This document shows positions 25,239 to 64,000 of a stretch of 64,000 bases of DNA, one piece after another. Position 1 is the stretch's first letter, and the number at the start of each line of letters is the position of its first letter. This DNA is from an uncultured Thermoleophilia bacterium (GTDB lineage Bacteria; Actinomycetota; Thermoleophilia; UBA2241), in assembly GCA_963702475.1 (NCBI GenBank), contig CAVPCT010000009.1:128001-192000 (forward strand), read 5' to 3'. The position numbers and the translations under genes were made by a program. A model generated the notes under the pieces. It was not told the origin of the DNA, did not search any database, and was given only the letters and a program-made list of their open reading frames with translations.

Positions 25239-25240
25239 CG

Positions 25241-33121: not shown

Positions 33122-33139
33122 CTTAACACAACAGTTAAG
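33122..33139. promoter_or_regulatory. Palindrome CTTAAC-N6-GTTAAG, candidate TA autorepression operator
   Basis: Perfect 6-bp AT-rich arms directly upstream of the toxin. Confidence 0.55.
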
Positions 33140-33275
33140 TCGTTTCCAAGGGGAAGCATGGGGACGCACGCAACCCGTCGTCGCCTGCCTGAGGCAGGGT
33201 GACGAGGGTGGACATTGGCGCGTGGGGCGGCGGTATCGAGTATTTCGTCCACTCACCGTGTACGCTACGAAGGCC

Positions 33276-33596: not shown

Positions 33597-33996
33597 CTCT
33601 GCCGATCCCCGCCGCTGGCTCGCGTACGCCCGCAGTGATCTCGCGCTGGCTCGCGAGGGACGCCAGAGCGCGGACGTCTTCCTTGAGTCGCTGTGCTATC
33701 ACTGCCAGCAGGCTGTTGAGAAGAGCCTCAAAGCCGTGCTGATTGCGCACAGGCTGGACTTCCCGCGCACGCACAACGTGGGCACGCTGGCGGATCTTCT
33801 GCCGGCTACTGCGGCGCTTTCGTCCGTGGTCTCCGACGACCTGCTCCGCGGACTGAGCGCCTACGCGATCCTCTCACGGTATCCCGGGGACCTGGAGGAC
33901 GTCTCGGAGGCCGACTACGCGCAGGCGCTGGATGTCGCATCACGGATAGTCGACTGGGCGGGCTTGCATGTGGACAGCGAGTTGTCCAGTCACTGA
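33586..33996 (+). CDS. HEPN domain protein
   Basis: WL..ARSDL, CYHCQQAVEKSLKA, PRTHN, SRYPG. Confidence 0.92.
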   Translation: MRPDSADPRRWLAYARSDLALAREGRQSADVFLESLCYHCQQAVEKSLKAVLIAHRLDFPRTHNVGTLADLLPATAALSSVVSDDLLRGLSAYAILSRYPGDLEDVSEADYAQALDVASRIVDWAGLHVDSELSSH

Positions 33997-40524: not shown

Positions 40525-41705
40525 ATGAGAGAAGCTGTGATCGTGTCCTCGGTGCGCACGCCGGTCGGCAAGGCGCCCCGAGGGCTCGCTGAAGACGGTG
40601 CGGCCGGAGACGCTGGCCGTGACCGCCATCCGCGCCGCCATGGAGCGGGCGCCGGGGCTGGACCCGGCCGAGATCGACGACATCGTCTGGGGCTGCGCGT
40701 TCCCCGAGGCCGAGCAGGGGCTCAACCTGGCCCGCTACGTCGGCATCCTGGCCGGGCTGCCCGAGAACGTGCCCGGCGTCACCGTGAACCGGTTCTGCTC
40801 GTCGGGCCTGCAGGCCATCGCCTTCGGCGCCCAGGCGATCATGAGCGGCATGGCCGACGTGATCCTGGCCGGCGGCACCGAGTCGATGTCGTGCGTGCCC
40901 GGCGGCGGCAACAAGGAGATGCCGGACGACGCCGTGGCCGCCGTCGGCCGCCGACGCGTACACCAGCATGGGCATGACGGCCGAGAACGTGGCCGAGCGC
41001 TACAACGTGAGCCGCGAGGAGCAGGACGCCTTCGCGGCGCAGAGCCAGGCGCGGGCGCTGGCGGCACAGGCCGAGGGCCGCTTCGACGACGAACTCGTGC
41101 CGGTCCCGGTGGTGCACCGGCGGCCCGGCCCGGGCGGGACGATCGTCGAGTCGACGACGATGTTCACCGCCGACGAGGGGCCGCGCCCGGGCAGCACGCC
41201 CGAGGTGCTGGCGAAGCTGCGCACGATCTTCAAGCAGAACGGTACCGTGACCGCCGGCAACTCGTCGCAGACGAGCGACGCCGGCGCGGCCGCCGTACTG
41301 ATGAGCGGCGAGAAGGCCGAGGCCTTGGGCCTCGAACCGCTCGCCGTGTTCCGCTCCTTCGCCTGCTACGGCGTCGACCCCGGCGTGATGGGCATCGGGC
41401 CGGCGTTCGCCATCCCGAAAGCCCTCAAGATCGCCGGCATCGGCATCGACGACGTCGACCTGGTCGAGCTCAACGAGGCCTTTGCCAGCCAGGCCGTGTA
41501 CTGCGTCCGCGAGCTCGGCCTGGACCCCGAGATCGTCAACGTCAACGGCGGCGCCATCGCGCTCGGGCATCCGCTCGGCGCGACCGGCGCCAAGCTCACG
41601 GCCACGCTGCTGCACGAGCTCAAGCGCCGCAAGGGCCGCTACGGCGTCGTGAGCATGTGCATCGCCGGCGGCCAGGGCGCCGCCGCCGTGTTCGAGCGCG
41701 TCTGA
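40525..41705 (+). CDS. Acetyl-CoA C-acyltransferase (thiolase); two +1 frameshifts near 40584 and 40947
   Basis: [34 protein letters not shown]. Confidence 0.93.
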
Positions 41706-41736
41706 CCCGCCCGGCAACGAGAGCCAGGGAGACGAG

Positions 41737-43836
41737 ATGAAGTACACCAAGCTGCTGGAGCCGGGCTACATCGGCAAGGTGCGGACCCGCAACCGCATCT
41801 ACAAGACCGGCGCCGGCATGATGACCTTCCACGAGGACGAGCTCTCGATGAACGAGGATTCGCTCGGCTACTACGACGCCCTGGCCCGCGGCGGCGCGGG
41901 CGTCGTCACCGTCGAGGCGCCCACCATCGACTACCCGATGGGCGCGCGCTGGCGCGAGCGCTACCGCATGGACGACGACCGGTTCATCCCCGGGATGAAG
42001 GAGCTGGTGGACGTCATCCACAGCTACGGCGCCCCGGCGTTCATGCAGATGGAGCACGACGGGCCCTGGCAGTCGCCGCTCTTCGCCAACGCCCCGGCGA
42101 CCTTCGACGGACCGCCCATCGGCGCCTCAGCGATGAGCATCAACAGGATGGGCGACTTCCACCGCGACGTGATCCGCCCGCTCGCGGTGGCGGAGATCCA
42201 GGAGATCACGCGCAAGTACATCGACGGCGCGGAGCGCGCCCAGAAGGCCGGCTACGACGGCATCGACATCAACGCCGGCAGCAGCCACATCATCCACAAC
42301 TTCCTCTCGCCGTTCTGGAACAGGCGCACCGACGAGTACGGCGGCACGCAGCACAAGCGCGCCAAGCTGCTGCTCGACATCCTCACCGGCATCAAGGAGC
42401 GCTGCGGCTCCGACTTCCCGATCGTCGTCTGCCTCAACGGCTTCGAGGACGGCCACGCCATCGGCGCCGACCAGACGTTCACGCACGGCCAGGCCATCAT
42501 GACCATGCTGCTGGCCGAAGAGGCCGGCGCCGACGCCATCATGATCCGCAGCAGCTGGCTGGGCGTGCACGTGGCCGGGTTCCTGCCCGACTACCTGTTC
42601 TTCCCGGACGCGCAGGTGCCGCTCGACCAGATGCCGCCGCAGTACTACGCCAAGGAGCGCGGCCGCTCGGCCATGAAGCTGATGACCGACGAGGCCAGGA
42701 AGATCCTCTCCGTGCCGGTGATCCTGGTCGGCTACGTGACCCCGGACGACGGCGAGAAGCTGCTGGAGAAGGGCGCCGCCGACTTCATCGGCATGAACCG
42801 GCCGCTGATGTGCGATCCGAACCTGCCCAACAAGCTCGCCGCCGGTCACCCCGACGACGTCGCGCCCTGCACGCGCTGCGGCACCTGCCTCGACCAGAGC
42901 GAGCAGTTCCTGCGGCACTGCCGCCTGAACGCCGCACTCGGCTTCGGCTACCAGAACGTGCCGGCCCTCGAGGGGCCGCGCAAGAAGGTCGTCGTGGTGG
43001 GCGGCGGCCCGGCAGGCATGGAGGCCGCCCGCGTCGCGGCGCTGCGCGGCCACGACGTCACGCTCGTGGAGGCGGCGTCCCAGCTCGGCGGCCGCCTGCC
43101 GCTCGCCACGCTCATCAAGGGCAGCGACCTCGAGGACCTCCCCAACCTGATCCGCTACCTCAAGGGGCAGGTCAAGAAGAACGGCGTCAAGGTCATGCTC
43201 AACACCGAGGCGACGGCGGCGTCGATCAAGGCGATGGACGCCGACGTCGTGATCCTCGCGACCGGCGCCCAGCTCGCCGCGCCGGTCCTGCCGGGCACGC
43301 CGGGCGGCCAGAAGAAGGTCCTCACGACGCCCGAGCTCCACAAGCAGGTCAAGCCCTACCTGAAGACGCTCGGGCCCAAGGTGCTCGAGAAGGCGACGAA
43401 GTACCACCTGCCCATCGGCAAGAAGGTGGTCGTCGTCGGCGCCGGCCTGCACGGCATGGAGGTCGCCGAGTTCCTCGCCAAGCGCGGGCGCAAGGTGACC
43501 ATCGTCGAGCCGTCGGAGGTCATCGGCGAGGGCATGCTCGACTTCCGCCTCGGCCTGACCATGGACTGGCTGCCGTCAGTGGGCGTCGAGCTCGTGACCC
43601 GCGCAAGCGACCTCGAGGCCACCGACGCCGGCCTCGCCTACACCGACGCCGGCGGCGTGCGGCAGCTCATCCCCTGCGACACCATCCTGCCGACCGCGCC
43701 GCTCCAGCCCAACGACGAGCTGTACAAGGCGCTCGAGGGCGAGGTCCCCGAGCTGTTCCTCATCGGGGACGGCAAGGAGGCCGGCATGATCGTCCACGCG
43801 GTGCGCTCCGGCTACCAGACCGCCTGCGCGCTCTGA
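41737..43836 (+). CDS. NADH:flavin oxidoreductase (OYE barrel + 4Fe-4S + FAD/NAD domains), enoate-reductase-like
   Basis: [22 protein letters not shown]-x10-C, GGGPAG, GAGLHG. Confidence 0.92.
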
Positions 43837-46205: not shown

Positions 46206-48328
46206 GTGAACGCAGCGCTCGCGGCCGGCCGTACGGCCCTCACCGAGTGGGAGTCCAAGCAGCTCCTCGCGGCCTACGGCGTGCCCGTGCCCGAGGGCGA
46301 GCTGGTGACGAGTGAAGCCGAGGCGGCGGCCGCTGCGGCCCGCCTCGGCGGCCGTCTCGCGATGAAGGCCGTCGGGCCGGAGATCCTGCACAAGACGGAG
46401 GCCGGTCTGGTCGTGCTCGGCGTGTCCGGCGCGGACGAGGCCGTGGAGACGTTCCGCGGCCTCAGCGAGCGCGCCGGCGACAAGCTCGAGGGTGTACTGG
46501 TCGAGCGCATGGCCGGCGGTGACCGGGAGTTCCTCGCCGGCCTCGAGCGCGACCCGTCGTACGGGCCCGTGCTCGCCTTCGGCCTCGGCGGCGTGCTCAC
46601 CGAGGCCATCGGCGACGTGGCCTTCGGCCTGGCGCCGCTCGACGAGCGCGAGGCGCGCGCGCTGCCGGAGCAGCTCCGCGCGCGCCGCCTGCTCGGCGCG
46701 TTCCGCGGCGCCCCGCCGGTCGACCGCGCCGCGCTCGCTCAGGTGCTCGAGGCGCTCTCGGCCATCGCCGCCGACCTGCCCGAGGTCGCCGAGGTCGACG
46801 TGAACCCGCTGCTCGTCGACGGCGGCTCTCCCGTCGCCGTCGACGCGCTCGTGCTGCTCACGGCGGGGCCTGCGGCGGCGCCGCAGGCCCGTGCCGCCGC
46901 ACCCGACCTGGACGCCGTGTTCGCGCCGAAGTCCGTGGCCATCGTCGGCGCCTCCGACGACCTCGCCAAGTGGGGCGGCTCAGCTCTGCGCAACATCCTG
47001 CGCGGTGGCTACGCCGGCCGCGTCTACCCGGTGAACCCGCGGGCCTCGGTGCTCTTCGGCCTCCCGGCCTACCCGAGCGTCGACGAGCTCCCGGAGGAGC
47101 CCGACCTCGTGCTCGTCGTCGTCGGCGGTCACCAGGTCGTCGGCGTGCTGGAGGCCTGCGCCCGCCGGCACGCCCGCGCCGTCGTGGTCATCACTGCGGG
47201 CTTCGCCGAGACCGGCAAGCAAGGCGCGGAGGTGGAGCGCGAGCTCGCGCGCATCGCCGCCGAAGCGCACATGACCCTCATCGGCCCGAACTGCGTCGGC
47301 CTGGTCTCCAACGAGCGCGACCTGTTCATCACCGGCTTCATCGTGATGAGCCCGCCGCTCGCGAACGTGAGCCTCATCTCCCAGTCGGGGAGCATGGGCC
47401 CCGTCGTCGTCGCGACGTGCGAGCAGCGCGGCATCGGCCTGGACAAGTTCCTCAGCGTGGGCAACGAGGCCGCGGTGAGCGCCGTGGACGTGCTCGACTA
47501 CCTGCGGGAGGACCCCGGCACCAAGTGCGCCATGATGTACCTGGAGGGCGTCACGCGACGGGCGGCACTTTTTCGACGTGGCGAAGCGCACGACGCGCGA
47601 GAAGCCCGTCGTCGTGCTCCGTGGCGGACGCACGGAGGCCGGCAGCCAGGCGGCGGCGTCGCACACGGCGGCTCTCGCCGGCTCGGGCGCCGTGTTCGAG
47701 GCGGCCGCCCGCCAGGCCGGCGTCGTCACGTGCACCACGCCGGACGAGCTCGTGGACGTCACCGCCTGCCTCGCGTACCTACCGCTGCCGAAGGGCCGCT
47801 GCGTCGCCGTGGTGACGAACGGCGGCGGCCCGGGCGTGCTGGCCGCCGACGAGGTCGCCCTCAACAACCTGACGCTTGCCGAGCTCCCGGACGGGCTCAT
47901 CGCCGAGCTCGACAAGCTGTTCCCGCCGTTCTGGAGCCGTCGCAACCCGCTCGACCTGGTGGCGGCCGGCTTCGGTGACGAGGGCCTGCGCTGCCTCGAG
48001 CTGCTCGCCGAGTGCGACGCCGTCGACGCCATCCTCGCCGTCACCTTCGTCGGCGTGCCCGCCCTGCGCGAGGAGAGCGAGGACAACCGCACGCACGGCC
48101 AGTATCACGGCTTCTCCGCGCGTGAGGAGCAGTACCTGGAGCGCGTCGTCGACCCTCATGGACCAGACCGGCAAGCCCATCGTCAATGTCCCCGATCACC
48201 CGGTCCGCGGCACGATCCTCGACTTCGGCGACACCTACGCCCCCGTCATCCTGAACTCACCGCAGGCCGCTGCCCGCGCCCTCGACAAGATGGCGTGCTA
48301 CGCGGAGTACCTGCGCGCGCAGGACTGA
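46206..48328 (+). CDS. ADP-forming acyl-CoA (acetate-CoA) ligase, ATP-grasp domain first; two +1 frameshifts near 47555 and 48152
   Basis: HKTEAGLV, EVDVNP, VAIVGAS, GPNCVG, SQSG, SHTAALAG (phospho-His), NPLDL. Confidence 0.9.
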
Positions 48329-48363
48329 CGCACCCCGACCCGTCCCAGCAGGAGGGCCTCAAC

Positions 48364-49188
48364 GTGAACCCCATCATCACCGCAGCGCTGAACGGCCCCA
48401 TCGCCACGCGCGCGAACAACCCCAACCTGCCGGAGACGCCCGAGGACATCGCCACCAGCGCCAGGGGCGCCTACGAGGCCGGCGCCGCCGTCATCCACGT
48501 CCACCTGCGCGACGAGCAGGGCGGCTTCACCACCGACCTCGACGTGGCCAAGCGCACGGTCGAGCTGATCCGCGAGGCCTGCCCCGGCATCGTCCAGCTC
48601 TCCACCGGCGGGATGTTCGACTACGCCGACCGCATGCGCATCGTGGAGGCGAAGCCCGCCATGGCGACGCTGAACCCGTGCACCATGTCGTTCGCCGACG
48701 CCGAGTTCCGCAATCCGCCGAAGCAGATGCGGCAGATGGCGGCGCGCATGATCGAGTTGGGCGTGAAGCCCGAGGTGGAGCTCTACGATGTCGGCCACCT
48801 CGGCGTGATGCTCGACCTCGTGAACGAAGGCCTGCTGCTCGAGCCGTTGCAGGTGTCGTTCGTCATGGGCGTCAAAGGCGGCATGCCGGGCGACCCGCAA
48901 ATCCTCTCGTGGCTCGTGAAGAACCTGCCCGAGGGCACGAGCTGGCAGGTGATCGCCATCGCCAAGGCAAACCTGCCGATGACGTCTATCGGCCTCGCCA
49001 TGGGCGGCAACGCGCGCACGGGCATGGAGGATACGCTCATGGTGGCCTCGCACGTGCTCGCCGACTCCAACGCGCAGCTCGTGGAGCGCCTCATGAACAT
49101 CGCCCGCTCCATGCAGCGCGAGCCCGCCAAGGTCGACGAGGTCATCGAGCGGCTGAAGCTCAGCCCGGAGCTGATCGGACCGGGGTGA
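48364..49188 (+). CDS. BKACE / DUF849 beta-keto-acid cleavage enzyme
   Basis: NPNLPETPEDIA, AGAAVIHVHLRD, KPEVELYD, GGNARTGMED; RBS GGAGGG. Confidence 0.93.
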   Translation: MNPIITAALNGPIATRANNPNLPETPEDIATSARGAYEAGAAVIHVHLRDEQGGFTTDLDVAKRTVELIREACPGIVQLSTGGMFDYADRMRIVEAKPAMATLNPCTMSFADAEFRNPPKQMRQMAARMIELGVKPEVELYDVGHLGVMLDLVNEGLLLEPLQVSFVMGVKGGMPGDPQILSWLVKNLPEGTSWQVIAIAKANLPMTSIGLAMGGNARTGMEDTLMVASHVLADSNAQLVERLMNIARSMQREPAKVDEVIERLKLSPELIGPG

Positions 49189-54194: not shown

Positions 54195-55151
54195 TCAGAG
54201 GGCCAGGCGGGCCGGCGCCTGTCGGTTCAGGTCCGCCGGCACCGGCGGCCCCTGTTCGATCAGCCGGTCGACGAGCTCACGATAGCCGTCGAGCCGCTCC
54301 GCGACGTCGTTGGTGCCCGTGTACGCCGCCTCCACGGCGAGGAACAGGAACACGTGCGTGAGCATGGTATCGCGCTGGTCGTAGTCGTTGTCCCAGGCGG
54401 CGCGCATCACGGCTTGCTCGTTGGCGCCGAAGAGGCTGTAGGCAACGAGTTCGTCCGGGACCGGCGGAGCGTCCGGGTTGCAGCGCAGGCCCGCGAGGTC
54501 CTCCGTGGGCCCGGAGGCGATGATGCGGAGCGCCTCTTGCACGGCCGCGCGGGTCTCCGAGTCCTCCTGCAGCGCCTCGGCGCGCGCGAGGCCGAGCAGG
54601 TCCGGGCTCAGCCGCTGCACGCCCCAGAACGCGTAGGTGCGCATGATGAGGCGTACGACCGGGTCGGGCTCGTCGGCGAGCGGCGGCTCGATGAGGCTGT
54701 TCATCCAGCGCACGAACACGCTGAAGGACTCGATGAACAGCTGCCGCTTGGTGCTGAAGTGCTGATAGAAGACGGGCAGGGTGATGCCGACCTCGGCGAT
54801 GATGTCGCCGATGCGCGCGCGCTTGTAGCCGTGGCGGGCGAAGTGGCGCGCCGCCGCCTGCAGGATCGCGGCGCGCGTCTCCGCCGTGCGGCGGGCGACG
54901 AGGTCGGGCTCGGCCGCCGCCTGCTGCTCGATGAGCGGCCGGATGCTCGCGCGGATCGAGTCGAGGTCGGCGCCGGCGGTCTTGAGGCGGCGGATCTCCG
55001 TGAGCAGCGCGACGTGCGTGTCGCTGTACAACGCACGGCTGGCCGCCGCCTTCTGTGCCTGCGGCAGCAGGCCCTCGCGCACGTAGAAGTAGATCGTGCT
55101 GCGCGGCGTGCTCGTCGCTGCTTCGAGCTCCGTGATCGTCAGCGCCCTCAC
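54195..55151 (-). CDS. Second MerR-HTH / TetR fusion regulator (paralog of 2693-3646)
   Basis: RALTITELE..RSTIYFYVREGLLPQAQKA, RARIGDII..FSTKRQLF, GPTEDL, DELVAYSLFGA. Confidence 0.9.
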   Translation of the reverse strand: MRALTITELEAATSTPRSTIYFYVREGLLPQAQKAAASRALYSDTHVALLTEIRRLKTAGADLDSIRASIRPLIEQQAAAEPDLVARRTAETRAAILQAAARHFARHGYKRARIGDIIAEVGITLPVFYQHFSTKRQLFIESFSVFVRWMNSLIEPPLADEPDPVVRLIMRTYAFWGVQRLSPDLLGLARAEALQEDSETRAAVQEALRIIASGPTEDLAGLRCNPDAPPVPDELVAYSLFGANEQAVMRAAWDNDYDQRDTMLTHVFLFLAVEAAYTGTNDVAERLDGYRELVDRLIEQGPPVPADLNRQAPARLAL

Positions 55152-55168
55152 GCGCCCTCCGTCTGCGA

Positions 55169-55198
55169 TTGACACGACCTTGCGCAGAACTCTAGCAT
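55169..55198 (+). promoter_or_regulatory. Putative promoter TTGACA-N18-TAGCAT for the 55.3-63.3 kb operon
   Basis: Consensus -35 in the divergent intergenic region. Confidence 0.6.
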
Positions 55199-55274
55199 GC
55201 ATAGCAACTATTCCAAGTCCTATAGCTCGCCGTCGCAGCCCGGCGGCGGAGATGCCAGGAGGTAGCGGGGAGAC

Positions 55275-55529
55275 ATGAACCAGGTCCTCATCGACTTCGA
55301 CGCGTGCACCGGCTGCAAGACCTGTTACCGGGCCTGTTTCGCCGACGTGATCCGCTGGGACGCGGAGGCGAAGCTGCCCCTCGTCGCGTACCCGGAAGAC
55401 TGCGTGCACTGCAACCTCTGCGAGATCAGCTGCAAGGACGAGGCCATCACCATCGTGGCCGACTGGGACGTGCCGTACCCGCCGGTCATCGAGCGCGGGT
55501 TCCCGTACAGAGTGGGAGGCCTGCGATGA
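55275..55529 (+). CDS. 2x[4Fe-4S] ferredoxin (AprB-like)
   Basis: CTGCKTCYRAC and AYPEDCVHCNLCEISC. Confidence 0.92.
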   Translation: MNQVLIDFDACTGCKTCYRACFADVIRWDAEAKLPLVAYPEDCVHCNLCEISCKDEAITIVADWDVPYPPVIERGFPYRVGGLR

Positions 55530-57253
55530 CCGACCTCTCGCATCTCGGCCGGATCGAGACCGCAGACATCCTGGTGGTCGGCGGCGGCATCGGGGGTCTG
55601 GTCGCCGCCGTCGCGGCGAAGGAGAAGAACCCGGACGCCGACGTGCTCGTCGTCGAGCGCGCGACCTGCGGCTGGGCCGGCCAGGCCAACAAGGGGGCCG
55701 GCATCTGGTGGTACCTCGCCCCCGAGGACGACGCGGACGCGTTCGTGAAGTTCCACTGCGACCACATCGGCCACTACATCGAGGACCAGGAGCTGCTCGC
55801 CGAGTTCGGGCGCGAGAGCATGGACACGCTCGAGCGCATGGACGGCTGGACGCACAAGTTCCAGCGCCGTGAAGACGGGCAGTTCATCCACAAGCGCTTC
55901 AAGCCGTTCCTGCCCTGGAGCCTCACCGGCGCCGACCTCGACCTCATGCGCGTGCTCGCACGCCACGCGAAGAGGCTCGGCGTGCGCTTCATCGACAAGA
56001 CGTCGCTCACCGACCTGCTCACCGACGGCGGCCGCGTGGCCGGCGCCGTCGGCTTCGACCTGCTGGACGGCTCGCCCATCATCGTGCAGGCGCCGGCCGC
56101 CATCATCGCCACCGGCGGCCAGAGCTACCGCATCATGGGAATGTGGAGCTGCCAGCGCGGCGACGGCCTGGGTATGGCATGGCGCGCCGGAGCCGAGATG
56201 CGCAACGCCGAGTGGGGCCCGTTCGCCCAGCTCGCCGGCATCCGCGGCAAGGAGCCGCTCATCGGCGCGGAGGACGCCCTGTACAACGCGTGGCACGAGA
56301 AGCTCTCGCCGCGGTTCCGCGGCGAGTACGAGGCCGACGTGTGCGGCATGACCAGCGCCACCTGGTACAAGGAGATGGTGGCAGGCAACGGGCCGCTCGT
56401 GACGTTCCACCCGGAGAACTGGATGCTCGCCAACACCACCGAGGACGTTGAAGGCGGCACCGTGTGGGACCGCCCCGTCGCCGTGAAGTTCTGGACGACG
56501 CTCATCAGCCGCATCCGCGCCGCCGACGCGCCGGGCGCCTTTCTCGAGGTGTACCCGGCCGTACTCGGCGAGCTCTCGCCGATCAAGGTCGACCACCAGA
56601 TGGCGACGACGGTGCCGGGTCTCTACGCCTGCGGCAACGCCTGCTACAACGGCTCAGGCCTGCCCGGCGCCGTGCCCGCCTCGCCCGGGCGCATGCGCGG
56701 AGCCGGGCTCTACGGCGCCACCTTCATGGGCATCCGCGCCGGCGAGTCGGCGGCAGCCCAGGTGTCTCGCGCCGCGTCGCCCAAGCCCGACGCGGCGCAG
56801 GCCGAGGCGCTGGTCCACGAGGCACTCGCGCCGCTCGAGCGCGCTGATGGCACACCGGCCATGGACCTCGTCAAGGCCGTGCAGTACGCCGTGAACCCCG
56901 TCGGCTACTCGATCTACAAGAGCGAAGAGCGCATGAACGAGGCGCTCCAGCTCGTCCTGGACGTCAAGGAGCGCCTGCACCAGGCCAAGGCGGCCGACCC
57001 GCACTACCTGGTGGCCGCCCACGACGCGCGCAACATGGTCCTGAGCGCCGAGCTCTTCTACCGCACGGCGCTCGAGCGCAAGGAGTCGCGTGGCTGGTTC
57101 ATCCGCGAGGACTACCCCGAGCGCGACGACGCGCACTGGCTCAAGTGGATCAACGCCGCCGCCAGCGCGGGCGGCGGCGACATGCGCATCTGGACCGAGG
57201 ACGTGCCGCTGGAGCAGTACCCGTTCCGGCCGGCCGCAGCCGAGAGGAGCTGA
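55526..57253 (+). CDS. AprA/SdhA-superfamily flavoprotein
   Basis: GGGIGG, IATGG, GDGLGMAWRAGAEMRN, TTVPGLYACG, ALERKESRG..REDYPERDD. Confidence 0.88.
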   Translation: MTDLSHLGRIETADILVVGGGIGGLVAAVAAKEKNPDADVLVVERATCGWAGQANKGAGIWWYLAPEDDADAFVKFHCDHIGHYIEDQELLAEFGRESMDTLERMDGWTHKFQRREDGQFIHKRFKPFLPWSLTGADLDLMRVLARHAKRLGVRFIDKTSLTDLLTDGGRVAGAVGFDLLDGSPIIVQAPAAIIATGGQSYRIMGMWSCQRGDGLGMAWRAGAEMRNAEWGPFAQLAGIRGKEPLIGAEDALYNAWHEKLSPRFRGEYEADVCGMTSATWYKEMVAGNGPLVTFHPENWMLANTTEDVEGGTVWDRPVAVKFWTTLISRIRAADAPGAFLEVYPAVLGELSPIKVDHQMATTVPGLYACGNACYNGSGLPGAVPASPGRMRGAGLYGATFMGIRAGESAAAQVSRAASPKPDAAQAEALVHEALAPLERADGTPAMDLVKAVQYAVNPVGYSIYKSEERMNEALQLVLDVKERLHQAKAADPHYLVAAHDARNMVLSAELFYRTALERKESRGWFIREDYPERDDAHWLKWINAAASAGGGDMRIWTEDVPLEQYPFRPAAAERS

Positions 57254-57257
57254 CCCG

Positions 57258-58112
57258 ATGGCGACCAGCAGGGAGTGCGCCGCGCGCGAACCCGCGCCGC
57301 TCACGGCGGAAGAGCAGGCCAGGCCGTACGCCAAGTACTACACGATGGACCTGGGCGGGGCCGACCCGGCAGCCCTGGAGCTCATGGCCCGCGACCGGCA
57401 GGTCCCGCAGGGCAAGATGCTCATGCCGGAGGACCTGGACAGGCTGCTCGACCCGGGCAACTTCGAGGTCGAGACCGGCTGGGGCATGATGGACAACGGC
57501 GCCGGTTACATCGCCATGCGCCACGAGATGCCGGGCGTCACCGTCGAGATGATCGACTGGTGGTTCGCCTGGCACCCCCTCGAGCCGCTGCGCTACCGCA
57601 TCTGGTACCCGCAGTACCACCTGGGCATCGGTCTCGACGAGTGGGTGCGTCCCCGCCTCAAGGACCCCGACGTCCCCGTGCGCGACAAGGTCGAGCAGGT
57701 CGTCCACCACGTGACCGAGGACACGGGCTGCGGCACCGAGCACATCGACATCCACTTCCTCACGCCGGAGCAGATGGGCTTCGACATGAACCGCTGGCAC
57801 GCGCCCAACGTGGGCACCTTCGTCGGCGGCTTCGGCTTCAGCCTCAACGAGCACCAGCCGGCGGATCTCCCCGCGGCGCCGGCCATCATGGTCCACTTCG
57901 TGCGCGAGATGGACGGCGGCGTGGAGTGGCGCACGCGCTTCTGGATGGGCTACACCATCATGGGCGGCCACCCGGTGTGCATGCTGCCGCCGGGCGTGCG
58001 CATCCCCGAAGAGGTGCCGCACGGCCTCGCCAACCACAACGTGCACGAGTACGGGCGCCTCAAGGCGCTGCTGCCGCTGATCTACGCCGAGCTCGGCGGC
58101 ACCTACGCATGA
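57258..58112 (+). CDS. PhlG / phloretin hydrolase family C-C hydrolase
   Basis: MPGVTVEMIDWWFAWHPLEPLRYRIWYPQYH, HHVTED, RTRFWMGY, HNVHE..LLPLIY. Confidence 0.9.
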   Translation: MATSRECAAREPAPLTAEEQARPYAKYYTMDLGGADPAALELMARDRQVPQGKMLMPEDLDRLLDPGNFEVETGWGMMDNGAGYIAMRHEMPGVTVEMIDWWFAWHPLEPLRYRIWYPQYHLGIGLDEWVRPRLKDPDVPVRDKVEQVVHHVTEDTGCGTEHIDIHFLTPEQMGFDMNRWHAPNVGTFVGGFGFSLNEHQPADLPAAPAIMVHFVREMDGGVEWRTRFWMGYTIMGGHPVCMLPPGVRIPEEVPHGLANHNVHEYGRLKALLPLIYAELGGTYA

Positions 58113-59869
58113 GCGCTGACCCGGTCTACTACGACGCTCTGGTCAAGGACTACGACCTGCCGGTGACGATGCGCGACGGCGTCACCCTGCGCGTGGACGT
58201 GTACCGCCCCGACGCGCCCGGTCAGTTCCCCGTCCTCTACACGTGCGCCATGCACAACAAGGACCTGCAGCGGGTGGAGGTGGCCGAGAGCCTCAGGGTC
58301 GGGCAGCCCGCCTGGTCCACGCAGTGGTACGGGGTGATCGAGGGGGGAGACTCGAAGCGCTTCGTGGCCCACGGCTACGTGCACGTGATCGCGCAGGTGC
58401 GCGGCGGCCACAAGTCGGAGGGTGAGCTCCTCGTCGGCGACGAGTGGGACCACTACGACACCATCGAGTGGATCTGCTCCCAGCCGTGGTGCGACGGCAA
58501 CGTCGGCATGGTCGGCCTCTCGGCCTTCGCCGCCGAGCAGTGGAGGGCCGCCGCCCAGGGACACCCGGCGCTCAAGGCCATCTTCCCCCTGGACGCCGGC
58601 GGCTGCTACGGAGGGCTCGAGGGCTTCCGCGACCAGCACCCGGGCGGCGTGATCCAGACGATGCCGTACCATATCGGCCTCTACAACAGCCTGCACGGGA
58701 GCATCGGCACGCCGCCTGAGCTGCCGCCGCCCCTGGAAGAGGCGTGGGCGGCGGCCATGCGGGACCCCGACTACCTGATGTACGTGAACCTGTACAACAT
58801 CCTCACGCTGAAGGGGCAGCGTGACCCGGGGATGTTCTATCCGCTGCTGTTCCCGTTCGAGCGCCCCGGCACCGTCGCGCGCACCGAGGAGCTCTTCGCC
58901 AAGATCAGGATCCCCTTCGTCACCGGGGCCTTCGAGGGCGCCTACACCTACAAGATGCACTGGCAGGGGGCGCAGCACTTCTTCGCCGGCGTCGACGTGC
59001 CGCACAAGCACCTCTTCGTCACCCCGCCGGCGCACGCAGAGCGCCCGTTCCACGAGTGGCACGACGAGATCATCCGCTGGTACGACCACTGGCTGAAGGG
59101 CGTCGACAACGGAGTCGAGGACGACCCTGCAGTGCGGGCCTGGATCATGGGCGAGAACAGGTGGCGCGAGTTCGACGCGTGGCCCGTGCCCGAGACGCGG
59201 TGGACAGAGTACTACCTGCACTCCTGGGAGAAGCTCGACACCAGGGGTCACCTGCCGGCCACGCGCACCTTCGTCGACGAACCGCCGGACGCCTTCGTGC
59301 AGATGCCGCCGACGCAGACCAACACCATCCAGCGGCTCCGCTACCTGACGGAGCCGCTGGCCGACGACACCCTCGTCGTCGGTCCCATCTCGCTCACCTT
59401 CTGGGCGTCACTCGACGAGGACGACACGAACTGGATCGTCATCCTCAAGGACGTCGGCCCGGACGTCTCGGTGCAGACCGTGCGACCCGGCGAGCGCGAG
59501 CGCCCCGCCGTGCCGGAGCGGGAGCTCACGCGCGGCTGGCTGAGGGCCTCACGCCGCGCGCTCGACCCCGAACGCTCGACGCCCTGGAAGCCCTGGCACC
59601 ACCTCAGCCCGGAGACCATCAGCCCGGTCGTGCCCGGCGCCGTCGAGGAGTACCAGGTGGAGATCCTCTCCACCGCCAACCTCTTCAAGACGGGCCACCG
59701 CATCTGCCTCGAGATCACCAGCCTGGACCTGGCCGAAGGAGTGGCCGGCGAGACCTTCGCGGAGTACATCCCCAACCACGTGTGCTCGAGCAGGACGGTG
59801 CTGCACAAGGTGTTCCACAACGCCGAGTACCCGTCGCACCTGCTGCTGCCCGTCGTCCCCCTCGAGTAG
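58109..59869 (+). CDS. CocE/NonD family serine hydrolase
   Basis: MRDGVTLRVDVYRP, RGGHKSEG, QPWCDGNVGMVGLSAF, RWYDHWLKG, FKTGHRI. Confidence 0.9.
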   Translation: MSADPVYYDALVKDYDLPVTMRDGVTLRVDVYRPDAPGQFPVLYTCAMHNKDLQRVEVAESLRVGQPAWSTQWYGVIEGGDSKRFVAHGYVHVIAQVRGGHKSEGELLVGDEWDHYDTIEWICSQPWCDGNVGMVGLSAFAAEQWRAAAQGHPALKAIFPLDAGGCYGGLEGFRDQHPGGVIQTMPYHIGLYNSLHGSIGTPPELPPPLEEAWAAAMRDPDYLMYVNLYNILTLKGQRDPGMFYPLLFPFERPGTVARTEELFAKIRIPFVTGAFEGAYTYKMHWQGAQHFFAGVDVPHKHLFVTPPAHAERPFHEWHDEIIRWYDHWLKGVDNGVEDDPAVRAWIMGENRWREFDAWPVPETRWTEYYLHSWEKLDTRGHLPATRTFVDEPPDAFVQMPPTQTNTIQRLRYLTEPLADDTLVVGPISLTFWASLDEDDTNWIVILKDVGPDVSVQTVRPGERERPAVPERELTRGWLRASRRALDPERSTPWKPWHHLSPETISPVVPGAVEEYQVEILSTANLFKTGHRICLEITSLDLAEGVAGETFAEYIPNHVCSSRTVLHKVFHNAEYPSHLLLPVVPLE

Positions 59870-59884: not shown

Positions 59885-60667
59885 ATGCTCAAGAGCATCG
59901 TCATGATGGACCTGCCCATCGACGACATCGCCGAGATGGAGCGCTGGTATTACGAGGCGCACTCCTCGGAGATCTCGCGGCGGTACGGGCCCTGGCTGCA
60001 GCGCCACGAGAGCTACGTGGCGCTGGACGCGCCCGAGGACGCGCGCCAGTTCGGCTTCTACAACTGGCGCGTCACCGAGTGCTGCTGGCGCGAGATGCCG
60101 CAGGCGGGGCCGGCCGGCGCCTACTGCTTCACGCCGGCCCCCGTCTGGAACCCTATCGCCACCTGCGCCGTCAAGCCGCAGCCCGACGACGACTTCTTCG
60201 GCTGGGACGGCTTCTCCACGCAGGGCGCCAGCATCCGCTGGTTCATCCTCCTGCGGTATCCGTTGGGCGTGCGCCTCAAGGACGGCGAGGACTGGTTCCG
60301 CAACGTGCACGCCCCGGAGGTGTGCCGGCAGCCGGGGCTCACACGCTTCTTCAGCCACAAGTGCGAGCAGGCGGCGGTCCCGCTGCCCGGCGTGTGGCAC
60401 CCGGACGCCTCGCCGCCCCAGGACTACCTCATGGTCCAGTGGGACCGCGTCGTGGAGCTCTGGTACCCGAGCTTCAGCGCCTGGCGCAAGGCGGTCATCG
60501 AGGAGCCGCCGGTCTACACGCCGCCGGAGTGGGCGACCGACGACTTCTACAAGGACGGCTACGCCCGGTACCCGTTCTTCAAGCCCGGCGTGGACTTCGT
60601 CAGCACGTTCCTGCTCGAGCGCCCCGCCGACGAGTTCCTGCGCGACACGCGCTACTACCGGCCGTGA
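59885..60667 (+). CDS. Bacterial chalcone isomerase-like protein
   Basis: RWYYEAH, FGFYNWRVTECCW, YPLGVRLKDGEDW, VVELWY, PEWA..YPFFKP, colinear with the Eubacterium ramulus CHI sequence as recalled. Confidence 0.75.
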   Translation: MLKSIVMMDLPIDDIAEMERWYYEAHSSEISRRYGPWLQRHESYVALDAPEDARQFGFYNWRVTECCWREMPQAGPAGAYCFTPAPVWNPIATCAVKPQPDDDFFGWDGFSTQGASIRWFILLRYPLGVRLKDGEDWFRNVHAPEVCRQPGLTRFFSHKCEQAAVPLPGVWHPDASPPQDYLMVQWDRVVELWYPSFSAWRKAVIEEPPVYTPPEWATDDFYKDGYARYPFFKPGVDFVSTFLLERPADEFLRDTRYYRP

Positions 60668-60683: not shown

Positions 60684-61523
60684 ATGCCCGTGAGACAGCT
60701 CACGCCCGAAGAAGAGGCCAAGCCGTACGCGAAGTACTACCACCGTCCGGTGACGCCGCCGGACGCGGACCTGGTCGCGCTCATCCGGCCGGACGTGCAG
60801 ATCGACCCGGCCCTGGCGCTGCCGCCGGAGCGCATCAGCGACCTGCTCGACCCCGGCTACCACGAGGTCGAGACCGGCTGGTGCATCATGCCCGACGGCA
60901 GCGGCTACCTGGCCGTGCACAACCGCATGCCCGGCGTCACCGTGGAGATGCTCGACTGGTGGTTCTGGTGGCACTCCATGGCCAGCGTGCGCTACGGCCT
61001 GTGGTATCCGCCGGGGCACTACGGCATCTCCATAAGCCGGAGGTCGCGCGCCCGGCTCAGCGACCCGGACGTACCGGCCAAGGACAAGATCTACGGCCGC
61101 ACCGACCACGTGGTCGAGGACATCGGCACCGGCGCGGAGGACATCTACATCTGCTTCTGCGCGCCCGAGGAGATGGGCTTCGACATGAGCCGCTTCCATG
61201 CCCCGCACGTGGCGGCCGTGTACGGCGGCTACGGCTTCGACCAGCCGCAGGGCGCCAGGCCGAGCGACATCCGCGCGCCCGCCATCATGTGCCACTTCAT
61301 ACGCGAGCTCCCCGACGCCGAGGGCGTCGAGTTCCGCTCGCGCTTCTGGATGGGTTACAAGCTCATCGACGGCGAGCCCGTGCTGGCCATCCCGCCGGGC
61401 GAGTCGGTGCCGGCCGCGGTGCCCTACGGCCTCGCCGATCACAACGTCAAGGAGTACTGCAACCTCAAGTCGCTGCTGCCCGAGGTCTGGGCGGAGTTCA
61501 AGGACGAGGACCCGGCTCTGTGA
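60684..61523 (+). CDS. PhlG / phloretin hydrolase family C-C hydrolase
   Basis: MPGVTVEMLDWWFWWH..RYGLWYPPGH, HVVEDIG, RSRFWMGY, HNVKE. Confidence 0.9.
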   Translation: MPVRQLTPEEEAKPYAKYYHRPVTPPDADLVALIRPDVQIDPALALPPERISDLLDPGYHEVETGWCIMPDGSGYLAVHNRMPGVTVEMLDWWFWWHSMASVRYGLWYPPGHYGISISRRSRARLSDPDVPAKDKIYGRTDHVVEDIGTGAEDIYICFCAPEEMGFDMSRFHAPHVAAVYGGYGFDQPQGARPSDIRAPAIMCHFIRELPDAEGVEFRSRFWMGYKLIDGEPVLAIPPGESVPAAVPYGLADHNVKEYCNLKSLLPEVWAEFKDEDPAL

Positions 61524-61542
61524 AGCCGCGCGGAGGAACCCC

Positions 61543-62337
61543 ATGCCAATGAAGCTGATGGCGGCGTCACGCCGCCGGCCTGGACTCACCAGGGCGGAGT
61601 ACTTCCGCTACATCGAGCACTACCACGGCACGGTGGCGCGCCTGGAGCGCTTCAAGATCGAGAAGTACATCCAGAACCACGTGATCGACGGCGCCTTCGG
61701 CGTGATCTCCGACGCCGGCGGCCACAAGAACAAGGTCGCCGACAGGGACGCCGTCGTCGAGCTCCACTTCGACAGCTTCCGCGACATGCTGGCCACCCTC
61801 GAGCCCGAGGGGGTGACCCAGTCGCGGGCCAACCAGGACGGCCGCTTCTTCGCCGACGAGCCGACCAACATCATCGTCATGGCCGAGGAGACCGAGCTTC
61901 CCGTGGCCAAGCCCCTGCCGGACTTCAATCCGGGACTGGGTGAGCCGGGGCACGGAGCTCTCAAGGTGATGCAGTTCGTCATGCGCCGCCCCGACGTCTT
62001 CCCCCAGGACTTCCACCGGCTCTGGTGCCGGGCTCACGACGAGGCCCTGGCGGCGAGCCCGTACGCGAACGACATGTTCCGCAGGATCGTCGTGAGCAAG
62101 CGCTCCCGGGTGAACGACAACGACGCGGCCGCCCGGGCGCACTTCAAGATGGTCGACCCGCCGGTGTACGACCTCGTGGTCTCGTTCATCCTCGACAGCG
62201 TGGAGCAGGCCGGCGCCTTCAGGCAGTACTTCGACGCCGTCACGAGCAGCCCGCTGGAGTTCGCCGACTGGTCGGAGTCGTTCTTCCTCTACGTGAGGCA
62301 GGTGCGGATCATCGACGACGCGCCGCCGAAGGAGTAG
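61543..62337 (+). CDS. Tandem EthD-like protein
   Basis: RRRPGLTRAEYFRYIEHYHG..KYIQNHV..RDAVVELHFDS and a second KVMQFVMRRPDV..FHRLW repeat. Confidence 0.8.
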   Translation: MPMKLMAASRRRPGLTRAEYFRYIEHYHGTVARLERFKIEKYIQNHVIDGAFGVISDAGGHKNKVADRDAVVELHFDSFRDMLATLEPEGVTQSRANQDGRFFADEPTNIIVMAEETELPVAKPLPDFNPGLGEPGHGALKVMQFVMRRPDVFPQDFHRLWCRAHDEALAASPYANDMFRRIVVSKRSRVNDNDAAARAHFKMVDPPVYDLVVSFILDSVEQAGAFRQYFDAVTSSPLEFADWSESFFLYVRQVRIIDDAPPKE

Positions 62338-62341: not shown

Positions 62342-63250
62342 ATGGCAGACATGACCAAGCCCGAGTGGGCCGCGCAGAAGACCTACGACCAGAATCTGGG
62401 CGACGCCAGGATCAAGGCCACGCGCCCGCCGCTCACGCCGGAGGAAGAGAAACGGCCGTTCGCCAAGTACTACTACGACGAGATCCCCGAGCCGGACCCG
62501 GCGCACTACGCGGACATGGACGTGCCGATGGACCCCTCCGACGCGTTCTACCCGGAGGAGATCGACCGCCTGCTCGACGTCCCGGCCCTCGAGGCGGGCG
62601 TGGAGGTCGGCTGGTGCAACCTGCCCAACGGCGCCGGCTACATCGCCAACCGGATCCACTATCCGGACTTCACCGCCGACATGGTCGACTGGTGGTTCGC
62701 CTGGCACCCGCTCGAGGACCTGAGGTACCGCATCTGGTACCCGCCGCAGCACGCCGGCATCATGCTGAGCCCCATCGACAGGGCCCGCATCCTCGACGAC
62801 TCCATCCCCAACCGGGAGAAGAACTGGGGCGTGGTCCACAACGTGACGGAGAACTGCAACTGCGGCTTCGAGAACGTCGACATCGCCTTCCGCTCGCCGG
62901 CCGACATGGGCTTCGACATGGAGAAGTTCGGCAGGGTGGCGGCCACGATGGCGGCGGGCCAGGGCTGGGCCGTGGCCGTCGAGAAGTGCGACGCGTCCAT
63001 CACCGCGCCGGCGATCATGTGCCACGTGCTGTACGACGCTCCGGAGGGCGGGCTGATCCACCGCACGCGTTTCTGGATGGGCTACCGCTTCAACGAGGCG
63101 GGCAAGCCGGAGCTGTGCCTGCCGCCGGGCGTGAGCGTGCCCGTGGAGGCCGTGCAGGGTCTGGCGCGCCACAACGTCAAGGAGTTCACGCGCTGGCGCG
63201 AGTTCCTGCCGCGGATCTACGCGGAGCTGGGGCCGGGGATGTACTGCTGA
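62342..63250 (+). CDS. PhlG / phloretin hydrolase family C-C hydrolase
   Basis: DMVDWWFAWHPLEDLRYRIWYPPQH, HNVTEN, RTRFWMGY, HNVKEF..FLPRIY. Confidence 0.9.
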   Translation: MADMTKPEWAAQKTYDQNLGDARIKATRPPLTPEEEKRPFAKYYYDEIPEPDPAHYADMDVPMDPSDAFYPEEIDRLLDVPALEAGVEVGWCNLPNGAGYIANRIHYPDFTADMVDWWFAWHPLEDLRYRIWYPPQHAGIMLSPIDRARILDDSIPNREKNWGVVHNVTENCNCGFENVDIAFRSPADMGFDMEKFGRVAATMAAGQGWAVAVEKCDASITAPAIMCHVLYDAPEGGLIHRTRFWMGYRFNEAGKPELCLPPGVSVPVEAVQGLARHNVKEFTRWREFLPRIYAELGPGMYC

Positions 63251-63497: not shown

Positions 63498-64000
63498 ATG
63501 ACCGCGTCGTACCCGCAGCTGTTCTCGCCGACGAGCATCGGCAAGGTCCGGCTGAAGAACCGCATCGTCAAGACGGCCGCGCAGACGTACTTCTTCGAGT
63601 CGGGCGAGCGGCGCTTCGGCGGCATCGCCAAGGCCTTCTACGGAGCTGTGGCGCGTGGTGGTCCCGGCCTCGTCATCTGCGAGACGCCGGCCATGGAGGC
63701 GCCCTACAAGGAGACGGACGACCGCCGCTACCGCGTCGACGACGACCGCTTCCTGCCCGACATCGAGGCGCTCGCGGCCGAGGTCCACAAGTACGACTGC
63801 CCGCTCTTCCTGCAGTTCTACCACCGCGGCCCGTGGGGCGGCGTGTACGCGGTCGGCAGGCGGCGCATCTCCGCGTCGGGCGTGACCGTGGCGTCGCCCT
63901 TCGACGTCTACGGGGAGGAGCCGCCGCACGCCATGACCCTCGCCGACATCGAAGAGGTCATCGAGGCGTTCGTGGACGGCGCCGCGCGCGCGGCGCGCGG
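63498..64000 (+). CDS. Second NADH:flavin oxidoreductase / OYE (runs off window end)
   Basis: YPQLFSPTSIGKVRLKNRIVKTA..ARGGPGLVICE..DDDRFLP..LQFYHRGPW. Confidence 0.9.
   Translation, partial: MTASYPQLFSPTSIGKVRLKNRIVKTAAQTYFFESGERRFGGIAKAFYGAVARGGPGLVICETPAMEAPYKETDDRRYRVDDDRFLPDIEALAAEVHKYDCPLFLQFYHRGPWGGVYAVGRRRISASGVTVASPFDVYGEEPPHAMTLADIEEVIEAFVDGAARAAR

Follow-up and report, generated by a model that had tools for sequence, protein, structure and literature searches.

The 64,000-nucleotide stretch of DNA analyzed here (the window) belongs to contig CAVPCT010000009.1 of assembly GCA_963702475.1, the genome of an uncultured Thermoleophilia bacterium. Toward its 3' end, an open reading frame (ORF) that extends from ATG to stop at precisely 59885-60667 on the plus strand encodes a chalcone isomerase (CHI)-like protein of 260 amino acids, which we call CHIL. 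The ORF is intact, shows the codon bias typical of the genome and a third-position guanine-plus-cytosine content of 0.97, like that of the surrounding genes, and carries the ribosome-binding site GAGAGGAGAG a few bases 5' of its start. It is part of an operon whose genes lie on the same strand and are separated by gaps of 4-16 nt, with one ATGA overlap. CHIL is the sole match to the Pfam family Chalcone_N in the genome (4.3 Mb, nine contigs). The nearest loci, at 70-90% identity, are in uncultured Thermoleophilia and other Actinomycetota genomes, and relatives with as little as 35% identity occur across phyla. A scan of NCBIfam assigned no family either to CHIL or to EthD2, a neighboring protein described later. 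In ten related clusters the source name, where present, is always "hypothetical protein", and a search of RNA reads found no run matching half of the query words. The features of the gene that concern us are as follows, where CHIera denotes the chalcone isomerase of Eubacterium ramulus.

59885..60667, plus strand: CHIL, 260 amino acids, a lid-less protein of two ferredoxin-like domains in the bacterial chalcone-isomerase superfamily.
59942..59971, plus strand: RWYYEAH..E, residues 20-26 and E29; H26 corresponds to the catalytic His33 and E29 to the His-polarizing Asp36 of CHIera.
60005..60007, plus strand: H41, at the position of CHIera Tyr48; the His is specific to the clade of CHIL.
60074..60088, plus strand: TECCW strand, residues 64-68, with T64 at the position of Thr71, C66 of His73 and W68 of Trp75.
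60089..60154, plus strand: 22-residue linker, between the TE..W strand and the next strand, in place of the roughly 55-residue lid region of CHIera.
60293..60319, plus strand: WFRNVH..E in domain 2, with H142 and E145, a duplicate of the H26/E29 dyad.
60365..60445, plus strand: 27-residue insertion in domain 2, residues 161-187, a gap in CHIera and part of a predicted interface.
60536..60562, plus strand: TDDFYKDGY segment with a 7-residue insertion (about 219-225), found only in the subclade with a hydrolase gene downstream; core of the predicted interface.

CHIL is a true, distant homologue of CHIera. It matches Chalcone_N (PF18232) with 30.8 bits, where the cut-off is 25, and a phmmer search of all PDB chain sequences returned CHIera entries only (E 4.9e-9). 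In that alignment RWYYEAH falls on RWIYKVH of CHIera, which places H26 on His33, and TECCW falls on TEHHW; a MAFFT alignment with the CHI encoded in the E. ramulus strain 21 genome gives an identical register. The first-pass annotation of this DNA, made from the letters alone, had put the His of RWYYEAH at the catalytic position of CHIera, and both alignments confirm it. A profile built from an alignment of 55 relatives (A1) matches PDB 3zph with an E value of 5.9e-33 over profile positions 2-253 of 255, and therefore both domains of CHIL match CHIera; the resemblance is not a matter of chance.

The predicted structure agrees. An AlphaFold2 model of CHIL has a mean predicted local distance difference test (pLDDT) score of 92.1 and a predicted template modeling score of 0.90. 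With this model, the best Foldseek matches in the PDB are all chains of CHIera (E 2.2e-18, template modeling score 0.73-0.78), and VIA-align superposes 235 residues on CHIera with Z 26.0 and a root-mean-square deviation (rmsd) of 2.4 A, the next unrelated entry reaching only Z 12.2. Clusters of the ESM Atlas at a score of at least 0.90 are all Chalcone_N; one mixed EthD/Chalcone_N cluster, at 0.87, is no more than a lead. The profile search and structure prediction that the annotation had proposed thus both give strong matches to bacterial CHI, whose absence was to have counted against its reading.

CHIL shares with CHIera (PDB 3ZPH, 4C9S, 4D06 and 8B7U) the two ferredoxin-like domains, at 21-22% identity. 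The His33/Asp36 dyad appears as H26/E29, and Thr71, Glu72, Trp75 and Trp28 are also kept. Like CHIera, CHIL is associated with genes of the enoate-reductase and phloretin-hydrolase types. Unlike CHIera, it has insertions of 27 and 7 residues in domain 2, it keeps in that domain a His-x2-Glu dyad that CHIera has lost, and its host is a soil actinobacterium rather than a gut Firmicute.

RWYYEAH itself occupies nucleotides 59942-59962; H26 is present in 55 of 55 aligned relatives and E29 in 53, and in a superfamily alignment of 65 rows, His stands in the H26 column of all 62 rows that have a residue there. According to the excerpted text of PMC9694015, His33 of CHIera is catalytic and is polarized by Asp36, the lid comprises residues 106-130, a lid-deleted enzyme retained one fifth of the activity, and His73 lies near the substrate and is not catalytic. 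A second study describes Tyr48 as the carbonyl binder, highly conserved in active CHIs, and Gln69, Thr71 and Gln101 as binders of the A ring, Gln101 contacting the 7-OH group (PMC8361940).

To compare pockets, we aligned CHIL with 22 relatives and with the CHI of E. ramulus strain 21 (L093:1486-2337), taking pocket residues from the list of PMC8361940 and residue roles from the excerpt of PMC9694015. Of the residues in the former list, 3 are identical in CHIL, 2 are conservatively replaced, 12 are changed and 3 are deleted. The correspondences, written as CHIera to CHIL, are as follows.

Identical: His33 to H26, Thr71 to T64, Trp75 to W68.
Conservative: Asp36 to E29, Ile12 to V6, Phe41 to Y34.
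Changed: Val14 to M, Ile29 to Y, Ser37 to I, Gln40 to R, Tyr48 to H, Phe50 to S.
Changed: Gln69 to R, His73 to C, Asp79 to P, Lys87 to G, Glu91 to F, Phe135 to I.
Deleted: Gln101, Asn122, Arg125; also Phe93, which is taken from the excerpt of PMC9694015.

Among the A-ring binders, Thr71 is thus kept as T64, Gln69 is replaced by Arg62 and Gln101 is deleted. The deletion spans about 33 residues of the lid region, leaving CHIera positions 93, 101, 122 and 125 without counterparts. The annotation had noted that the lid insertion appears shorter; in fact 22 residues stand where CHIera has about 55, and the lid is gone. The absence of a lid is compatible with catalysis, because lid-deleted CHIera stayed active, and so is the replacement of His73 by Cys, because His73 is not catalytic in CHIera (both from the same excerpt of PMC9694015). 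The column of H41 is divided between His (27 of 55 relatives) and Tyr (another 27): all 26 members of the closer group have His there, and 93% of the remainder have Tyr. Positions V6, Y22, I30, R33 and H41 are 100% conserved within the clade of CHIL, and therefore a maintained, specific site is indicated. Together these patterns of residue conservation support an active site that depends on His and has been maintained, in a pocket that is rebuilt and open.

These observations bear directly on whether CHIL might be an orthodox chalcone isomerase that acts on naringenin-type flavanones and chalcones, less efficiently for want of a lid, and feeds an enoate reductase and then phloretin hydrolases. 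CHIL shares the fold and catalytic dyad of CHIera, it is the only CHI-family gene of the genome, the operon and its surroundings encode each of the three kinds of enzyme used in the E. ramulus route, and CHIera tolerates deletion of its lid (PMC9694015, excerpt). Nevertheless, we regard this explanation as unlikely. With 12 pocket residues changed and 3 deleted, the losses include Tyr48, Gln69 and Gln101, and Phe93 is deleted as well. CHIL also lies outside the clade of true CHIs, the similar "branch B" proteins were reported to be inactive (data not shown; PMC8361940), and the predicted partner of CHIL, described below, is a hydrolase and not a reductase.

The first-pass annotation had further observed that TEHHW of CHIera is replaced by TECCW, which the phmmer alignment bears out for residues 64-68, and had treated the change as the mark of a subtype. 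The latter idea does not hold. TECCW occurs in 1 of 55 relatives, with Cys at position 66 in 7 of them and at position 67 in one; position 66 is variable (G, L, N, C, H and others), whereas 35 relatives have Trp and 7 have Tyr at position 67. We therefore regard TECCW as a quirk of the CHIL sequence that marks no subtype. We reject a role as a subtype signature, a metal site or a disulfide in view of its presence in 1 of 55 relatives and by Trp or Tyr at position 67 in 42 of 55.

The second W-x4-H motif that the annotation saw in domain 2, WFRNVH (residues 137-142, nucleotides 60293-60310), is indeed there. However, it is family-wide rather than peculiar to CHIL, and it is not a new motif: W137 is found in 54, H142 in 53 and E145 in 50 of the 55 relatives, and a comparison of domains identifies it as a retained duplicate of the catalytic His-x2-Glu dyad. 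When domain 1 of profile A1 is aligned with domain 2 by hhalign (probability 96.9%, E 2e-10, 88 columns), H26 pairs with H142, E29 with E145, R40 with R154, R62 with R188 and E65 with E191. Since the halves align with their dyads superposed, CHIL is an internal duplication with a His-x2-carboxylate motif in both halves. In true CHIs the position of H142 is V, F, L or A. A protein with the motif in both halves gives a picture of the probable ancestor of CHIera.

Domain 2 also recalls the EthD, or DABB, family (PF07110). It superposes on PDB 2ftr with Z 9.0 and an rmsd of 2.7 A over 96 residues, although the Pfam match of residues 135-204 is below threshold, with 14.4 bits where 22 are required (E 0.088). 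The W-x4-H-x-P-E motif of CHIL resembles the N-terminal motif of EthD. Such likenesses raise the question of whether the DABB scaffold could be used here for other chemistry, namely a cofactor-free oxygenation, cyclization or decarboxylation of a polyphenol breakdown product. In the structural comparison, CHIera is followed at Z 12.2 by an anthrone-oxidase-like protein and at Z 11.7 by the monooxygenase PenE. Taken by itself, domain 2 is similar to an EthD-family protein (Z 9.0), to methylmuconolactone methylisomerase (Z 8.3) and to olivetolic acid cyclase (Z 7.6), and an oxygen-dependent HpaB hydroxylase is encoded in the surrounding island. These Z scores are, however, far under the 26 obtained with CHIera and within the common range of the tool, and the invariant part of the protein is the CHI-type His/carboxylate dyad. 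Much of the island, moreover, is of anaerobic type, with molybdenum transhydroxylase-like enzymes and a corrinoid methyltransferase set. We consider such chemistry very unlikely.

The family to which CHIL belongs is small. A search with profile A1 against 1.84 billion cluster representatives found 344 with E <= 0.001, 215 at 1e-10 and 74 at 1e-30; the bacterial CHI family thus counts 344 representatives at 50% identity. Known activity is confined to one small branch, and most of the representatives lie elsewhere. We inferred a tree from 57 full-length rows, excluding 8 that were fragmentary or poorly aligned (P0105, P0115, P0131, P0160, P0170, P0210, P0229 and P0231). The clade of the window forms a separate group with a Shimodaira-Hasegawa-like approximate likelihood ratio test (SH-aLRT) value of 95. 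The CHIera-like sequences P0186, P0152 and P0149 form a distinct group (SH-aLRT 100) nested among lid-bearing clades, and CHIL is placed outside this clade of true CHIs. As anchors, P0186 and P0152 were checked against the PDB and match CHIera with E values of 2e-79 and 2e-46.

The bacterial CHI family and an inactive-looking branch of it have already been published. Meinert et al. 2021 describe a "branch B" of CHI-like proteins in which the lid helices alpha3-alpha5 become loops and residues are added between alpha6 and beta6 of the solvent-exposed domain (PMC8361940). Both features are seen in CHIL, as the 22-residue linker and the 27 residues at 161-187. That branch comprised 21 proteins, from GenBank of about 2020, with no function reported; the family is now far larger and more varied. 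CHIL resembles "branch B" as described in print; the single accession named in that paper was absent from the family-cluster members examined, and its main text does not name the proteins actually screened (PMC8361940).

The lack of CHI activity in "branch B" (data not shown; PMC8361940) could also mean that CHIL has no catalytic role and serves for binding or as a scaffold, or that it is an inactive relic. This seems to us a most improbable explanation. The His is invariant, and the pocket residues specific to the clade show 100% conservation; the intact ORF has genome-typical codon bias, and relatives down to 35% identity persist across phyla.

Two organisms carry both kinds of protein. E. 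ramulus strain 21 has two true CHIs and one CHI-like gene, and Holophaga foetida has one of each; because both kinds co-occur there, CHI-like proteins are not mere substitutes for CHI. The CHI and CHI-like loci in question are L088:7977-8789, L093:1486-2337, L091:982-1821 (minus strand) and L064:7992-8777. The CHI-like gene of E. ramulus encodes a lid-less protein with the second-domain motif WFLNHF and lies beside a MerR regulator and nitrogenase-like genes.

A further feature of CHIL is its relation to the gene that follows it. The other genes of the operon, and two genes farther upstream, are as follows.

55304..57253, plus strand: flavoprotein with FAD_binding_2 and Succ_DH_flav_C domains (Pfam), the head of the operon.
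57258..58112, plus strand: DAPG-hydrolase paralogue 1; the Pfam match is recorded for an ORF at 57090-58112, and we reset the start according to N-terminal likeness to DAPG2 and the preceding stop.
58109..59869, plus strand: CocE/NonD-family hydrolase, with the ATGA overlap with DAPG-hydrolase 1.
60684..61523, plus strand: phloretin-hydrolase-like C-C hydrolase (DAPG2), 279 amino acids, 239.5 bits to Pfam DAPG_hydrolase.
61540..62337, plus strand: tandem EthD-domain protein (EthD2), 265 amino acids (Pfam EthD).
62342..63250, plus strand: DAPG-hydrolase paralogue 3 (Pfam).
63498..64000 and on past the window end (L090:498-2570), plus strand: enoate-reductase-type flavoenzyme with Old Yellow Enzyme-like FMN and Pyr_redox_2 domains, 690 amino acids, starting 247 nt after DAPG-hydrolase 3.
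41653..43836, plus strand: second enoate-reductase-type flavoenzyme (Pfam domains).
48370..49188, plus strand: BKACE-family enzyme, of the family of the triacetate acetoacetate-lyase of the phloroglucinol pathway.

The three DAPG_hydrolase genes of the genome are all in this operon. DAPG2 is closer to phloretin hydrolase (PDB 5xey, E 6.9e-37) than to PhlG (E 3.6e-26). We compared CHIL and its downstream gene across 78 rows; in 8 there was too little downstream DNA, and L034 and L059, whose CHIL match is split, were omitted. A DAPG-hydrolase gene lies directly downstream in 22 of 22 loci whose CHIL protein has the 7-residue insertion and in 0 of 48 loci whose protein does not. Because the 22 loci represent one clade, this pairing counts as one evolutionary event.

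A model of the complex between CHIL (A1) and DAPG2 (A3) scores 0.87, and the best of three controls scores 0.00. The mark set for this score is reached by 116 of 157 solved complexes and by 2 of 215 mismatched pairs, counts that hold only roughly here because custom alignments were used. Contact agreement among runs was at least 80%, with a partner pLDDT of at least 90. On CHIL the predicted interface comprises residues 74-75 (in the linker that replaces the lid), 127-132, 162-166, 179-185, 215, 219, 221-223 and 235-236, and given this set of residues it would be built largely from clade-specific insertions. The contacts of lowest predicted error are at residues 219 and 221-223, inside the 7-residue insertion. 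On the hydrolase side, the interface involves stretches that are specific to DAPG2 orthologues and differ in paralogues 1 and 3. We know of no solved complex between members of the CHI and DAPG-hydrolase families.

The gene pairs could have another meaning, in which CHIL is an accessory or tautomerase-type subunit of a DAPG-family hydrolase, presenting, for example, the keto tautomer of acylphloroglucinols or phloroglucinol-derived intermediates, with EthD2 acting likewise for hydrolase 3. Consistent with this, there are two parallel and strictly conserved pairs, CHIL-DAPG2 and EthD2-DAPG3. The complex model scores far above its controls (0.87 against 0.00), and of the two halves domain 2 is better conserved; it contributes the larger part of the predicted interface and has its own His-x2-Glu dyad. 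Also, the phloroglucinol clusters of L070 and L063, which contain CHI-like genes, have no hydrolase or reductase in the scanned part (about 2000-14800) of their roughly 16.7-kb loci. Characterized phloretin hydrolases, however, are active alone as far as is known. The excerpt of PMC8003664 describes PhlG as a zinc-dependent hydrolase and mentions no partner protein. Most CHI-like proteins outside the subclade lack an adjacent hydrolase, and a sequence relation between CHIL and EthD2 is undetected (hhalign probability 1.1%). On balance, a purely accessory role seems rather unlikely.

With moderate confidence, we favor the view that CHIL is a CHI-type general acid-base isomerase of altered specificity that is coupled to the downstream hydrolase. 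The homology to CHIera, the fold, the conserved dyad, the missing lid, the operon and the conserved gene pair are shown by the data, whereas the type of reaction, the class of substrate and the complex itself are what we infer from them. H26, polarized by E29, would act as general base and acid at the carbon beside an aryl-ketone carbonyl, as His33 and Asp36 do in CHIera, and CHIL would thereby open or close the oxygen-containing ring of a substrate of flavanone type, or of a closely related phloroglucinol-derived ketone. H41 may take the role of Tyr48 at the carbonyl, in a pocket that is rebuilt with Arg33, Arg62, Tyr22 and Ile30 and lacks a lid. Because of this rebuilt pocket and the missing lid, the substrate is probably other than the naringenin type preferred by CHIera. 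CHIL most likely pairs physically with the product of the next gene downstream, the phloretin-hydrolase-like protein, which would cut the aryl-ketone C-C bond to release phloroglucinol for further degradation by enzymes of the island.

Several points weigh against this proposal. The lid region is deleted and with it Gln101 (the 7-OH binder), Asn122 and Arg125, and Tyr48, Gln69 and His73 are replaced by His, Arg and Cys. The published description of "branch B" fits CHIL, and a screen of such proteins is stated to have revealed no CHI activity (data not shown; PMC8361940). CHI and CHI-like proteins co-occur in E. ramulus and H. foetida, although the CHI-like paralogues there belong to other clades. 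The 22 of 22 pairing comes from one clade and so from one event, and the score of the complex is a confidence of the model, not a measurement. In addition, the textbook route runs from isomerase to reductase to hydrolase, and a complex between its first and last enzymes is not what that order predicts.

The annotation had proposed a CHI-family subtype of altered specificity, with flavanonol ring contraction as one candidate reaction. The notion of a distinct bacterial-CHI subtype with a changed pocket stands, as indicated by the tree, the pocket residues and the fold, even though TECCW is not its hallmark and the second His is not a new motif. That reading was partial, in that the fixed pairing with a phloretin-hydrolase-like gene, the chief mechanistic feature, was absent from it.

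A bolder version of the proposal, which we offer tentatively and think rather doubtful, would make CHIL and the hydrolase a dedicated complex in which the labile open-chain product of the isomerase is handed straight to the hydrolase and cleaved. A flavanone-type compound could then be converted to phloroglucinol and a (hydroxy)cinnamate-type acid without reductase, cofactors or oxygen. EthD2 and its hydrolase would be a second such module, and the dyad of domain 2 a second working site, lost in true CHIs.

To see how far the context of CHIL is conserved, we compared neighbors from the window with 80 related loci by tblastn (E <= 1e-10, at least 40% of the query). The numbers of loci with a match were as follows.

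DAPG hydrolase: 26-29 of 80, depending on the query paralogue.
EthD2: 22 of 80.
Short-chain dehydrogenase/reductase (SDR): 20 of 80.
FAD_binding_2 flavoprotein, conserved upstream: 16 of 80.
BKACE: 10 of 80.
Reductase type: 4-5 of 80.
CocE/NonD: 4 of 80, none of them in the flanks of the closest clade.

Gene order was examined in 17 loci. CHIL is followed directly by the orthologue of hydrolase 2 in 13, the distant loci L037, L038, L041 and L044 lacking it. EthD2 is followed directly by the orthologue of hydrolase 3 in 12 of the 12 loci among these 17 in which EthD2 was detected; this pair can lie on either side of CHIL, which it adjoins in 11 of these loci, whereas in L037 it is about 2 kb upstream. 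Further members of the clade of the window, at 47-58% identity and mostly from Proteobacteria, have no hydrolase gene, and their loci often adjoin genes for tandem EthD proteins, SDRs, BKACE, an amine-oxidase-like flavoprotein, or major facilitator superfamily or LysR proteins. In L042 and L043 (Rhodocyclaceae, Burkholderiales), DUF1302, DUF1329 and MMPL-type transporter genes precede the CHI-like and tandem EthD genes, and an amine-oxidase-like flavoprotein and two SDRs follow, a distinct conserved proteobacterial context.

CHI-like genes of other clades occur in complete phloroglucinol clusters in L070 (Lachnospiraceae ZAX-1) and L063 (a Prolixibacteraceae genome), and beside the same reductase type in L061 and L073. 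Because loci of other clades show the same context, the link to polyphenols and phloroglucinol holds across the family. The clusters at L070:7956-13412 and L063:6369-14526 contain 3HCDH, BKACE, SDR and cyclase genes, and in L063 the CHI-like gene also adjoins FMN_red.

EthD2 is unusually conserved, with 64-94% identity among Actinomycetota, Holophaga, Terriglobales and a Halotalea isolate. Its AlphaFold2 model (pLDDT 73.6) has a generic two-ferredoxin fold. EthD2 and hydrolase 3 look like a second module of a ferredoxin-like protein and a C-C hydrolase. That CHIL and EthD2 are paralogues is unsupported by BLASTP and by hhalign (probability 1.1%). An EthD-hydrolase fusion (P0260, 406 amino acids) was not used as evidence: the two genes of the window are out of frame, with 7 nt from stop to start, and the fused call may therefore reflect a frameshift.

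CHIL is co-located with genes of the enoate-reductase type, the phloretin-hydrolase type and the phloroglucinol pathway. Besides the second reductase, the remainder of the window encodes SnoaL, HpaB, an ADP-forming acyl-CoA synthetase, BKACE, several SDRs, a 3-hydroxyacyl-CoA dehydrogenase, a thiolase, electron-transfer flavoprotein, three pyrogallol-transhydroxylase-like molybdenum enzymes and Liv-type transporters. Genes for a GlcDEF-like oxidase and a corrinoid-protein/URO-D pair lie 3' of the operon, and the contig also carries cyclase-family genes, about 36 kb upstream of the window. The phloroglucinol pathway consists of PGR, DPGC, TfD and TAL, according to the excerpt of PMC10470551. 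By the pathway in that excerpt, the annotated gene content marks the island as one that converts polyphenols to phloroglucinol and on to acetyl units.

Every step of the flavanone route of gut bacteria (CHI, enoate reductase/Fcr, phloretin hydrolase) and of the phloroglucinol pathway is represented by homologues or family members in the window or contig. In contrast to the gut route, however, the hydrolase is triplicated, and two copies are each paired with a two-domain ferredoxin-like protein. The operon and its surroundings add the CocE/NonD hydrolase, the FAD_binding_2 flavoprotein, the GlcDEF-like oxidase and the corrinoid/URO-D set, and the host is a Thermoleophilia genome. When compared with the E. 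ramulus and H. foetida genomes, the enoate-reductase-type enzyme that starts at 63498 has 30-36% identity to several paralogues, which does not discriminate.

In the limited literature searched, we did not find the clade of CHIL, its pairing with a hydrolase, the predicted complex or the retained duplicated dyad. The locus supplies a concrete context for one clade outside the active branch, namely the fixed pairing with a C-C hydrolase gene, the complex predicted from it, and a conserved catalytic dyad within a pocket that has been rebuilt. The modeled pair of CHIL and hydrolase suggests a possible route for the breakdown of plant polyphenols in soil. If correct, soil Actinomycetota would have a new enzyme module for breaking down flavonoids or acylphloroglucinols, with a bearing on polyphenol mineralization in soils and sediments, and it would provide a lid-less CHI scaffold of different specificity for biocatalysis.

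Some other genes deserve mention. The pyrogallol-hydroxytransferase-like molybdopterin set (22734-25238, 25205-26086, 26083-28785 and 49434-52403) consists of three large subunits and one Fe-S/CarboxypepD_reg gene resembling a small subunit, which suggests several trihydroxybenzene isomerization systems in one Thermoleophilia genome. The B12-binding corrinoid protein beside a URO-D-family methyltransferase-like gene is at L090:14656-16567 (equivalent to window positions 77656-79567, outside the window). This pair, which looks like an anaerobic-type aryl O-demethylase set, is again found beside CHIL in relatives such as L017.

Three regulators combine MerR-type and TetR-type helix-turn-helix domains within one ORF each, an unusual architecture that recurs in the island (2687-3646, 54195-55409 and L090:13584-14513). 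The ADP-forming acyl-CoA synthetase is apparently split by a change of frame at about 47578-47580: positions 3-74 of Succ_CoA_lig end ORF 46206-47978 (residue 458), and positions 74-138 begin ORF 47578-49188 in another frame. The split is either an assembly error or a broken gene, and the BKACE gene follows in the second frame. A SnoaL_4 (NTF2-like) protein is encoded at 43882-44559, right after the enoate-reductase-type gene at 41653..43836. Finally, a ParE-toxin-like gene (32017-32355) and a nucleotidyltransferase/HEPN pair (32808-33996) break up the catabolic island.

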